From NCBI GenBank assembly GCA_036517115.1, contig DATDYB010000005.1:18970-82969 (forward strand): 64,000 nucleotides of DNA, written 5' to 3'. Below are positions 23,094 to 25,659 of the stretch, in pieces. Under the pieces are notes generated by a model. The model was not told the origin of the DNA. It saw only the letters and a list, made by a program, of their open reading frames with translations, and ran no database searches. The first letter of the stretch is position 1. Every line of letters begins with the position of its first letter. The translations under genes were made by a program, and so were the position numbers. This DNA comes from Minisyncoccota bacterium. Its GTDB lineage: Bacteria; Patescibacteriota; Minisyncoccia; Phycocordibacterales; PALSA-1337.

Positions 23094-24086
23094 CTACCTC
23101 TGCTTTTTTGTGATCTGTTGTTGGAGTTTATACCCCTCCCCATGCTTCAAAAGCCCGAGATAGGAAGCGATTGTTGCTGTGCTTGGTTTATCATAGCACC
23201 GCGCAAACATTCTCCTCTTTGTTGTCGTTCTTAACACTCGGTGTGTGGGGAAATGCACCCAGCCGAGGAAGTCCACGCCAGAGGCAAGGGTTTTTATGAA
23301 TACTTTGTCAGGGTGAAGTGACAATTTCAATCGTTCTGAAAGAAATGTGCCGATCTTCACTATCAGATCTTCTAGGTATGCTTTACTGTGGTGCAGAATG
23401 ACGAAGTCATCGGCATAACGAATGTAGTACTTCACTTTCTGTGTATGTTTCACCCACTGATCGAACTCGTTCATGTAGACATTGACTAGGAGTTGGGAGG
23501 TGAGGTTGCCGAGAGGGAGACCAACTCCGAGAGTAGCACTATGGAAACTCTCGATGATATTCTGAAGAAGCCGAAGGATGTCGCTGTCGGATATGTGTTT
23601 TTCGAGAATTGAGAGCAATATCGGCTGATCGATAGAGGCGAAGAACTTGCGGATGTCGCATTTTAATACGAAGCATGTCCGATAACCACAATCCTCCACC
23701 CATGTCGAAAATGACGTAAACCTTCGGAGTGCTTTATGCGTCCCCTTACCCAACCTGCATGAATATGAATCATAGATAAATATTTGGTTAAAAAATGGAT
23801 ATAGCGCACGGAACACTGCGTGATGAACTATTCTGTCTCTCACACTTGCCTTATGGATGTCTCTCGGCTTCGGATCATTTATTTTGAAATGTCCGTATCC
23901 GCCATGTTGATAACTTCTTGATGATAGATCTTGTTGTAATGACATAAGATTCGGCATGAGACGGAGGCCGAACTCTTGAACGTCCGCTCTCTTCGTTTTT
24001 CCTTTTAAAAAAATTCTCCACGAGGTAAGTAGATTTTCCAAAGAGATGATATTCTTATACTGATGAGTAAAATAAACTTGATGCAT
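23094..24086 (-). CDS. diversity-generating retroelement reverse transcriptase
   Basis: N-terminus YKNIISLENLLTSWRIFLKGKTKRADVQEF...KINDPKPRDIHKASVRDRIVHHAV. Motif GLPLGNLTSQLLVNVY (the [ILV]GxxxSQ variant characteristic of DGR RTs, instead of QGxxxSP). YADDFVILHH catalytic motif. ~330 aa. The ORF track starts at GTG 24152; the in-frame ATG at 24086 (MHQVYF...) avoids overlap with avd. Confidence 0.85.
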   Translation of the reverse strand: MHQVYFTHQYKNIISLENLLTSWRIFLKGKTKRADVQEFGLRLMPNLMSLQQDLSSRSYQHGGYGHFKINDPKPRDIHKASVRDRIVHHAVFRALYPFFNQIFIYDSYSCRLGKGTHKALRRFTSFSTWVEDCGYRTCFVLKCDIRKFFASIDQPILLSILEKHISDSDILRLLQNIIESFHSATLGVGLPLGNLTSQLLVNVYMNEFDQWVKHTQKVKYYIRYADDFVILHHSKAYLEDLIVKIGTFLSERLKLSLHPDKVFIKTLASGVDFLGWVHFPTHRVLRTTTKRRMFARCYDKPSTATIASYLGLLKHGEGYKLQQQITKKQR

Positions 24087-24117
24087 TCCATAAATAGTAC
24101 CCACCCCCCGCACGGTT

Positions 24118-24465
24118 TTGCCAGTGCTTGAGAAATTGAAAGATGGATACACATTGTGGCACAGATGTCACGAACTGATGCCAAAAACACAGCGATATTC
24201 ACTTGGCAACAGAATTGATAAATTGTTTATAGAGGCGATCGAGGCGACAGCAACGGCAGCTTTCCTTCCCCCACAAGAAAAGGTGGCGTGGGTTCGTTTA
24301 GCACTTCGAAAAACCGACGTCATACAAGTGTTATTATTGATCTGCTTAGAGACTGATTCATTCGAAGAAAAGCATTTTGTTGATGTATCGATGAAGCTTG
24401 CGGAGATTGGTAAAGATCTAGGCGGGTGGAACGGCAAACTTACAAAACAAAACTCCGGCGGATAA
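24118..24465 (+). CDS. Avd-like accessory variability determinant (four-helix-bundle protein)
   Basis: ~115 aa. ...QRYSLGNRIDKLFIEAIEA... and C-terminal ...EEKHFVDVSMKLAEIGKDLGGWNGKL, which resembles the bAvd C-terminus (..AEVGRILGSW..). TTG start in the track, and other starts are possible. Divergent from the RT. Confidence 0.65.
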   Translation: MPVLEKLKDGYTLWHRCHELMPKTQRYSLGNRIDKLFIEAIEATATAAFLPPQEKVAWVRLALRKTDVIQVLLLICLETDSFEEKHFVDVSMKLAEIGKDLGGWNGKLTKQNSGG

Positions 24466-24487
24466 ATCCTACGGAGAAATGAATAAG

Positions 24488-24615
24488 TTGCGGAAGGACG
24501 AAGGCGAAACCGCCATTGTCGTTCCAGTTGTTGTCCGGCCTATCGTAGTTGGCGTTCAAACAGCGACCGTCATTGTCACGGTTCGCATAGAGCACGTTCG
24601 GATCGCCGTCGGAAT
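24488..24615 (-). repeat. DGR template repeat (TR), 128 bp, non-coding
   Basis: Near-identical to 24931-25058. At all ~23 mismatch positions the TR carries T on the + strand (A in the coding sense of the minus-strand target). In that frame the TR reads S D G D P N V L Y A N R D N D G R C L N A N Y D R P D N N W N D N G G F A F V L P Q (Asn AAC/AAT-rich). Confidence 0.85.
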
Positions 24616-24844
24616 GCGCGAGATTTCATCCCTGCAACTGTAAAATCATAGCTAGTTTTTGTAATTTTAAATTACCCAAAACCCCGCGCCAAGTAGCTTC
24701 ATTTTTTTAAAGAAGTGTCTACATGTACCCTCCGTCTAGAATGATAATTCTAAAGACGCTCTCAATACATGGATACTGGTTTCGGCAGTCCTGACATTCT
24801 GATGCCAAAACAGATTCGCCTACTTCCGTCTGTAAGTATATATG

Positions 24845-24869
24845 AAAAAACCTCGACGTGTGTCGAGGT
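24845..24869 (-). terminator. hairpin ACCTCGAC-GTGT-GTCGAGGT followed by T6 (on minus strand) ~60 nt downstream of the VR/stop; target-gene terminator and possible DGR-associated stem-loop
   Basis: Read directly. A6 on the plus strand precedes the stem. Confidence 0.5.
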
Positions 24870-24900
24870 TGTGTAAAAACCAAAGCCAAGGGACCGAGGG

Positions 24901-25659
24901 CTAGGTTTGAGAAACCGAAGTCGAGGGCTCTTGCGGAAGGACGAAGGCGAAACCGCCATTGCCGTACCAGCTGAAGCCCGGCCCACCGTAGAAGGCGTCC
25001 AAACAGCGACCGTCATCGTCACGGCCCGCACAGAGCACGCTCGGATCGCCGTCGGAATCATTGATCGCGTCATGCATCGCTACGATGTACCAGAGACCGA
25101 GTTCTTCGAGTTCGGCATCGGTGAGAAGGTCTCGAATAAGCGGACCAACTTCCCAATGAGGTGTCTTCCACCCCCGAACCTCTGCGTCTTTGCGGATTGT
25201 TTTGGTGTACCGATCCTTGTTCTTGATCTTATTACCGGGCCGGACAGCGATGTTATACGTCACGCCGGTGGTAGGTGCGTCCGTTGCCCTCCTTAGAACA
25301 TTCTTGCCCCAGTCGGAAACGCGATAGGGCTGCCCCTTGGCATCCTTCTTTTCCTTTTCGAAATAGGTAATCCACTGTTCATTGGTACGACCGTTGGAAG
25401 TGACTTCGAAGTAAATAGTTCCTTCGGAGTCAATTACCCATTTGGAACCCGCCGGAATGGCAGGAATGACTGGCTTGATCGTTTCGCCGCTTTGATCAAT
25501 GAGTACGAGCTTGGCTTTGCCTCTTACGAGCATCGATACAGCCGTGAAGTTTTCTTCTGTCGACAACCATTCAACGTCATTGGTGTCGCCGTCGTTGCGT
25601 TTAATAGCCGTCTCCAATTTGTGACCTGCACCTTGAGTTAGTACGAACGTGCTGTTCAT
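24901..25659 (-). CDS. DGR target (variable) protein with C-terminal C-type-lectin/FGE-like variable region
   Basis: 252 aa. C-terminal ...GLWYIVAMHDAINDSDGDPSVLCAGRDDDGRCLDAFYGGPGFSWYGNGGFAFVLPQ contains the VR. No obvious signal peptide. N-terminal domain unrecognised. Confidence 0.8.
   Translation of the reverse strand: MNSTFVLTQGAGHKLETAIKRNDGDTNDVEWLSTEENFTAVSMLVRGKAKLVLIDQSGETIKPVIPAIPAGSKWVIDSEGTIYFEVTSNGRTNEQWITYFEKEKKDAKGQPYRVSDWGKNVLRRATDAPTTGVTYNIAVRPGNKIKNKDRYTKTIRKDAEVRGWKTPHWEVGPLIRDLLTDAELEELGLWYIVAMHDAINDSDGDPSVLCAGRDDDGRCLDAFYGGPGFSWYGNGGFAFVLPQEPSTSVSQT
24931..25058 (-). repeat. DGR variable repeat (VR) at the 3' end of the target gene
   Basis: Encodes ...DSDGDPSVLCAGRDDDGRCLDAFYGGPGFSWYGNGGFAFVLPQ. 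Ends 28 nt before the stop codon. Differs from the TR only at TR-adenine positions. Confidence 0.85.

Follow-up and report, generated by a model that had tools for sequence, protein, structure and literature searches.

A candidate phyla radiation diversity-generating retroelement with an inverted avd gene and a predicted stand-alone, structured template RNA

A 64,000-nucleotide stretch of DNA from a Minisyncoccota bacterium (assembly GCA_036517115.1, contig DATDYB010000005.1, positions 18,970 to 82,969; hereafter the window) carries a diversity-generating retroelement (DGR) whose accessory gene avd lies opposite in orientation to the reverse transcriptase (RT) gene, the template repeat (TR) and the target gene with its variable repeat (VR). 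We consider it likely that this is a DGR of the type found in bacteria of the candidate phyla radiation (CPR), with the published B3 layout and with separate transcription units that include a stand-alone TR RNA of ~390 nt. In the working that we propose, the transcript of the target gene would end at its own terminator (24870-24843), and a promoter with its -10 box directly after that terminator (24840-24835) would drive the TR RNA. This RNA would consist, in order, of a leader of ~215 nt with helix P1 at the 5’ edge of the TR, the 128-nt TR, a pairing segment of 7-9 nt, and a hairpin with a U-run. The pairing segment would fold back onto the leader and hold the two TR flanks together, much as the avd:Sp duplex does in Bordetella, and the hairpin and U-run would end the RNA within the last codons of the convergent avd gene. 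A very short control region between avd and RT would serve the divergent expression of both genes; in relatives it contains a simple-sequence tract. Avd and RT would then bind the TR RNA and make a cDNA of the TR in which adenines are miscopied, and this cDNA would replace the VR. The start and end of transcription, the binding of protein to the leader and the regulation by the tract are the steps of this scheme that we infer.

Components and layout of the cassette

The RT gene occupies positions 23094-24086 on the minus strand and encodes 330 aa from the ATG at 24086 (the whole open reading frame, ORF, spans 23094-24152). avd lies at 24118-24465 on the plus strand (115 aa, TTG start), divergent from RT and convergent with the TR RNA. 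The TR is found at 24488-24615 with its sense on the minus strand, and the target gene is a minus-strand ORF of 252 aa (24901-25659) with the VR (24931-25058) close to its 3’ end. RT, avd, TR and VR were thus each located where a preliminary description of the sequence had placed them. TR and VR form an ungapped match of 128 nt at an offset of 443, with 112 of the 128 positions identical, and all 16 mismatches fall on adenines of the TR (T on the plus strand, A on the minus strand). Since every mismatch is an A on the minus strand, the sense strand of the TR is the minus strand, the same as that of the RT and target ORFs, as had been proposed. The 3’-most 31 nt of the VR (24961-24931) are identical to the TR and resemble an initiation of mutagenic homing (IMH) segment; 30 nt separate the end of the VR from the target stop codon. 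Neither a further TR copy nor a second VR or target was found in the 64-kb window, and a search of the target gene product against Pfam and NCBIfam returned no family match.

The RT matched Pfam RVT_1 (E 2.9e-21) and a group-II-intron-like RT model of NCBIfam, and it contains the motifs YADD and LGNLTSQ. The pattern [ILV]GxxxSQ is established in the DGR literature as a motif of DGR RTs. Relatives were collected by an RT scan with one genome per species, which yielded 400, and the best 80 of these 400 (L001-L080), whose RTs are 56-67% identical to that of the window, were used as the comparison set. Their genomes are overwhelmingly labelled as metagenome-assembled genomes (MAGs) of Patescibacteria or CPR bacteria, and a few carry another label or none. 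The RTs of the relatives align from the ATG at 24086, which backs this start and confirms the divergent avd-RT gap of 31 bp (24087-24117) given in the preliminary description. The first codon of avd is TTG in the window and in most relatives, and TTA, CTG, ATT, CTA, ATC or CTT in the others; relatives with TTA, CTG, ATT and the like at this position have no in-frame start codon upstream. This codon (24118-24120) overlaps a -10-like GGYAAAAT on the RT strand.

The plus-strand ORF had been described as an Avd homologue, and this identity was confirmed. It matched the NCBIfam model NF033474 ‘DGR protein Avd’ over its full length (E 5.5e-12; 45.9 bits, curated cut-off 80) and Pfam bAvd (PF22296; E 4e-7; 30.9 bits, cut-off 40), and all 40 of the homologues tested from related loci matched NF033474 (best E 2.7e-23). 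Searches of the PDB, with the sequence alone and with a profile of 40 sequences, gave no match, and fold comparison settled the identity. The AlphaFold2 model of the protein is a four-helix bundle (pLDDT 88), and Foldseek aligned it with Bordetella Avd (4dwl; TM 0.86-0.90, rmsd 1.6 Å) and with the Avd chains of the DGR ribonucleoprotein (RNP) cryo-EM entries 8ub7 and 8ube. In a codon alignment of 60 sequences, position 3 was far more variable than positions 1 and 2 along the whole gene, a pattern that marks avd as a real coding gene. With A-specific TR/VR differences, a DGR-type RT and the Avd fold, the element is a member of the DGR family.

The layout had been called atypical in the preliminary description, and comparison with the published catalogue overturned this claim. 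Wu et al. (2018, Nucleic Acids Res 46:11; PMC5758913) defined architecture B3 as TR-(avd)-RT, the parentheses denoting the reverse strand. Of the CPR DGRs in their set, 90% had this form, which hardly occurred elsewhere, and Roux et al. (2021) reported a DGR clade confined to Patescibacteria. In the window TR, avd and RT follow in this order, with avd opposite to both TR and RT; order and orientation are those of B3, and there is no difference in layout. In 75 of the 80 relatives an avd homologue precedes RT by 25-70 bp and points the other way. Among the five exceptions, two had no upstream sequence, two gave no tblastn match, and one (L046) was rearranged. TR/VR pairs whose mismatches are biased to adenine were detected at 58 loci; there the order is VR, ~300-450 bp, TR, (avd), RT, read on the RT strand. 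Since order and orientation are shared by 75 of 80 related loci, the layout did not arise by chance. It is the CPR norm, unusual only against the Bordetella prototype and otherwise an ordinary member of a known, stereotyped class.

We regard it as extremely improbable that the plus-strand ORF is not a true avd, or that the inversion is a local rearrangement or an assembly artefact of this contig. Such a reading could draw on the NCBIfam and Pfam scores, which lie under the curated cut-offs, on the TTG start codon and on the PDB sequence search without a match. Against it stand the full-length NF033474 match of this ORF and the matches of all 40 homologues to the same model, the agreement of the modelled fold with Bordetella Avd, the codon-position entropy of a coding gene, and the same inverted position in 75 of 80 independent assemblies, an arrangement already published as B3. 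The shared layout, the homologue matches and the fold effectively refute it.

One of the relatives differs in its label. The MAG that contains L052 is labelled Bdellovibrionales, and ~250 bp downstream of its RT (L052:5220-5587) there is a full-length match to bacterial RNase P class A of 86.7 bits, with an Rfam gathering threshold of 100. It would be consistent with a CPR-type RNase P RNA that has diverged, and with a wrong label on the bin.

Predicted start, leader and 3’ end of the template RNA

Wu et al. (2018; PMC5758913) pointed out that a DGR with its components on both strands requires no fewer than two transcription units. The preliminary description had the TR-sense RNA begin inside an ORF-less spacer (24616-24844) that should contain its promoter. 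No credible ORF was found there, the overlapping ORFs being short and unsupported, and a promoter is predicted, at the upper edge of the interval; most of the spacer is occupied by a structured leader, which the description had not included. Just past the target stop, the minus strand carries CTTGG-like repeats (CCCTCGGTCCCTTGGCTTTGG, 24900-24880), and the block CTTnGAnCCTTnGAnCTTTG is conserved in an alignment of the VR-to-TR interval from 59 loci. A terminator scan and folding identified a terminator-like hairpin (24870-24849) with a T-run (the whole at 24870-24843), and the T-run is kept in relatives. Directly after it the 59-locus alignment contains a conserved -10 box, predicted in the window as TATACT at 24840-24835 on the minus strand. 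The consensus is TGnTATAAT / TAnnnT, with T1 present in at least 90% and A2 invariant, and conservation is unbroken from the -10 box to the TR. These features suggest that the TR RNA starts near ~24829, in keeping with the earlier placement.

Two other promoter candidates were rejected. One, reported by a scan tool (24692-24664, TTGGCG-17-TAAAAT), lies inside the covarying leader helices P1 and P2. The other (24721-24692, TAGACA-N17/18-GMTACT) would place the start where covarying P1 pairs would be removed, and was dismissed because conservation and covarying helices run ~130 nt further upstream, where a better -10 box is found. The CTTGG/CTTTG-like repeats between target stop and terminator are conserved across loci with a period of ~8 nt, and they occupy the place of the Bordetella GC-rich inverted repeat downstream of the IMH.

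The leader (24829-24616, minus strand; ~215 nt) has six or more covarying helices, and the final one abuts the TR. Its 5’ domain (24829-24710) includes the conserved sequences GGAAGTAGGCGAATCTG (24827-24811) and CCGAAACCAGTATCC (24785-24771) and two helices, a (24772-24765 with 24728-24719) and b (24758-24747 with 24742-24733), each with compensatory changes. The helices of this domain correspond to alignment columns 107-115/167-175 and 134-143/153-162, in which many compensatory changes were counted. An A-run with the upstream strand of a flank duplex follows at 24708-24696. The 3’ domain (24692-24613) carries P1 (12 bp, 24689-24678 with 24627-24616), whose 3’ strand reaches the TR edge, the P2 hairpin (24675-24661) and a reduced P3. 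Across the family this domain spans ~90-130 nt abutting the TR and contains three helices, P1, P2 and P3, with conserved joining sequences GAAUAAGAUACA and GGUGGUG. In 59 sequences 95.2% of its cells were paired, versus 72% in shuffled and 33-51% in slid alignments, and compensatory changes were present in 22 of 26 pairs (390 cells). Over the whole leader, 36 of 38 predicted pairs had compensatory changes.

A covariance model of the 3’ domain (R1) was built from 56 relatives with the window excluded. In the 64-kb window it gave a single match, at 24692-24613 on the minus strand (42.3 bits, E 2.4e-8). Among the relatives it matched 72 of the 80 loci, once each and always beside the TR on the TR strand, and 16 of these 72 were outside the training set. 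A search against Rfam 15 gave no match over the element, either in the window (E<=5) or in the five relatives searched (E<=1). The leader of the window is a reduced variant, in which P1, P2 and helices a and b are kept and no clear P3 can be recognized. It also lacks two GRTYACGGYTT loops that are present in most relatives, where the 5’ domain (for example L048:3227-3330) forms two hairpins with similar loops of 11-12 nt. The twin loops suggest a repeated binding site for one partner.

On the 3’ side, a conserved sequence (UCUUCAUUU) begins no more than ~10 nt past the TR and is complementary to AAAUGAAGA in the leader, just 5’ of P1. The duplex in the window has 7 bp, formed by AAAUGAA (24704-24698) and UUCAUUU (24483-24477, within a downstream segment at 24484-24476 of the minus strand). 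For the 9-bp family duplex, 93.3% of cells in 32 sequences were paired versus 45-56% when slid, and 14 compensatory cells were counted versus 3.4 in shuffles (0/500). Divergent loci have different yet complementary flank pairs, such as ACGAAGA/UCUUCGU and AAUAACA/UGUUGGUU. The duplex energy gave a modest signal (-6.6 kcal/mol for cognate versus -4.8 kcal/mol for non-cognate strands), as the consensus is common to most loci, and counting by column is the better test.

Directly beyond the duplex strand lies a hairpin (24476-24453) followed by a U-run (24452-24443), the predicted 3’ end of the TR RNA (24476-24443, minus strand), which overlaps the stop and the last codons of avd. In 55 relatives the hairpin has 8-12 bp and a dG of -10 to -20 kcal/mol and is directly followed by UUUUGUUU; the dG in the window is -10.4. 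At 55 of 60 loci a hairpin with a T-run lies within 75 nt of the TR, against a background expectation of 0.035 such sites in a stretch of that length. The stems vary freely between loci yet stay complementary (CUUCCGCGC/GCGCGGAAG, CUAAAACGCAC/GUGCGUUUUAG), and the outer stem covaries. The avd strand reads the hairpin and then AGAAAUGAA, which is A-rich, with no U-run, so that any termination would occur only in the TR direction. The avd stop of the window (24463-24465) lies inside the hairpin, and the last codons (KQNSGG) are antisense to the 3’ arm and the U-run. In relatives the stop falls before, within or after the hairpin, and this variable position indicates that the hairpin is no by-product of the protein tail. 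The preliminary description had left two fates for the RNA, termination before avd or antisense passage through it. Neither fits exactly, and the most likely end is at the hairpin and U-run over the last ~8 avd codons. Taken together, these features make it probable that the TR is transcribed on its own, as an RNA of ~390 nt from ~24829 to ~24443.

The strongest competitor to this reading is one long minus-strand transcript that comprises leader, TR, antisense avd and RT, in which the hairpin would be an Avd-binding stem-loop and spacer functions such as the primer site and the RT-binding stem would reside in antisense avd, just as the Bordetella phage has its spacer between TR and brt. We judge it unlikely, though a serious contender, and it is compatible with partial termination at the hairpin. 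In Bordetella, priming and RT binding depend on ~140 nt that follow the TR on its 3’ side, the first element being an 11-bp Avd-binding stem-loop, and Handa et al. (2024; bioRxiv 10.1101/2023.10.23.563531) reported stem-loops of this kind shortly after the TR in 207 of 278 DGRs, CPR members included. The hairpin described here sits at that place and need not terminate transcription, and an RNA that ended ~45 nt past the TR would need a priming arrangement other than that of Bordetella. Moreover, a consensus scan of 24100-24460 returned no sigma-70-like RT promoter, and the avd-RT gap is merely 31 bp; with no RT promoter detected, read-through from TR into RT would explain RT expression more simply. 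These points weigh against a stand-alone TR RNA, as do the lack of an evident -35 element upstream of the -10 box, the predicted nature of both RNA ends, and the reduced leader and interrupted G-tract of the window, which could mark its copy as partly degenerate. On the other side, the conserved U-run after the hairpin (55 of 60 loci) would not be needed by an Avd-binding loop, and the upstream:downstream duplex has already formed within 10 nt of the TR end. We also looked for reduced synonymous variation in avd and detected none except a slight reduction at the extreme 3’ tail, third-position entropy being 1.4-1.8 bits throughout the 60-sequence alignment. This argues against a functional antisense spacer RNA, makes a conserved antisense structure of 100 nt improbable, and led us to reject an antisense-avd spacer beyond the U-run. 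L046 shows that TR and RT need not be transcribed together: its target-leader-TR-(avd) module lies 1.5 kb from RT in the inverted orientation, which puts TR and RT on opposite strands, and avd still converges on the TR.

It is far less probable that the hairpin and U-run have no RNA function and merely reflect an Avd tail (‘..KQNSPxxxGEK’) that encodes a palindrome and an A-run. Many relatives do translate through the hairpin with a similar tail, and A-rich Lys, Gln and Asn codons yield a T-run on the other strand. However, in the window and several loci avd stops before or inside the hairpin, and the hairpin and T-run persist out of frame. L049 and L063, whose tails end in ...LIK* and ...LEK*, retain both, and the unlike but complementary stems and the covarying outer stem would not be expected of a coding by-product. 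The stand-alone TR RNA remains the reading that we favour.

The region between avd and RT

The 31-bp intergenic region of the window contains an interrupted G-tract (GGGGGGTGGG, G6-T-G3) at 24109-24100 on the minus strand. Among the 78 loci with upstream sequence, 70-71 have a run of G7-12 on the RT-sense strand between avd and RT, and four loci without a G run carry (GA)n or (GT)n at the same position. Other G/C runs of at least 7 numbered only four in 590 kb. The tract of the window is interrupted, whereas those counted in the relatives are uninterrupted repeats long enough to slip. In the rearranged L046 (2100-4950) the G-tract was upstream of neither avd nor RT. We compared eight pairs of loci whose 80-nt flanks are 90-100% identical, and the tract length differed in six of them (for example G11/G8/G10, or (GA)7 versus (GA)6), differences for which assembly error is possible. 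The position and the length variation of the tract suggest that in relatives it may act as a slippage-based switch.

Simple-sequence contingency tracts, either homopolymeric or dinucleotide, are found between divergent phase-variable genes in Neisseria and Haemophilus. Like these, the tract of the relatives lies in a short region between divergent genes and, as assembled, differs in length among near-identical loci. Unlike these, the tract of the window is interrupted.

Significance and comparison with known systems

The layout itself, as the published norm for CPR DGRs, requires no new biology. The leader, the flank duplex, the hairpin in the avd tail and the intergenic tract may represent new non-coding anatomy. 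For B3, Wu et al. gave no promoter, leader structure, terminator or intergenic tract, and full-text literature searches, which did not extend to the CPR DGR survey of Paul et al. (2017, Nat Microbiol) or to the supplements of Wu et al. and of Handa et al., returned no description of the leader; an earlier description is possible. We put forward, as a tentative proposal that is somewhat less probable than its negation, that inverted-avd CPR DGRs use an uncatalogued, large structured template RNA, that the functions of RT/Avd binding and cDNA stop have moved to the 5’ side of the TR, because the convergent avd occupies the 3’ side, and that avd and RT are phase-variable through a slippage-prone tract. 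If this is true, DGR RNPs can be built the other way round from the one example of known structure, with the accessory RNA on the other side of the template. The proposed switch, a G, (GA) or (GT) tract in a control region of 30-60 bp, would likewise make targeted hypermutation phase-variable, and CPR bacteria might toggle it by repeat slippage. Since the relatives are so stereotyped, the non-coding parts can be read from them, and the result is a testable model of the template RNA in the largest and least-studied DGR clade.

The predicted 3’ end resembles the intrinsic terminators at convergent gene ends, with the same GC-containing hairpin and U-run at the junction of two convergent units. 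It differs from these in that the hairpin overlaps the coding tail of avd and is one-directional.

The best-described DGR RNA is that of Bordetella phage BPP-1, which consists of the avd 3’ end, the TR and a 140-nt spacer (Handa et al. 2018, 2024; bioRxiv 10.1101/2023.10.23.563531). The spacer elements include the primer strand, a thumb ring and a long RT-binding stem, priming takes place in cis from the 2’-OH of a spacer adenosine, and in the RNP the avd:Sp ‘cPRT stop’ duplex joins the TR flanks. In Bordetella avd is co-directional with and upstream of the TR, whereas here it is inverted and downstream. The accessory RNA of Bordetella lies nearly all 3’ of the TR; here ~215 nt of covarying RNA lie 5’ and ~45 nt of conserved RNA lie 3’, where the conserved features stop at the U-run, short of a Bordetella-type spacer of ~140 nt. 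The order of duplex strand and stem-loop is also reversed relative to Bordetella, and here a U-run follows the stem-loop. The two systems nonetheless share an RT with a four-helix-bundle Avd, A-specific transfer from TR to VR, a duplex between the upstream and downstream TR flanks (here AAAUGAAGA with UCUUCAUUU), and a stem-loop of ~9-11 bp shortly 3’ of the TR.

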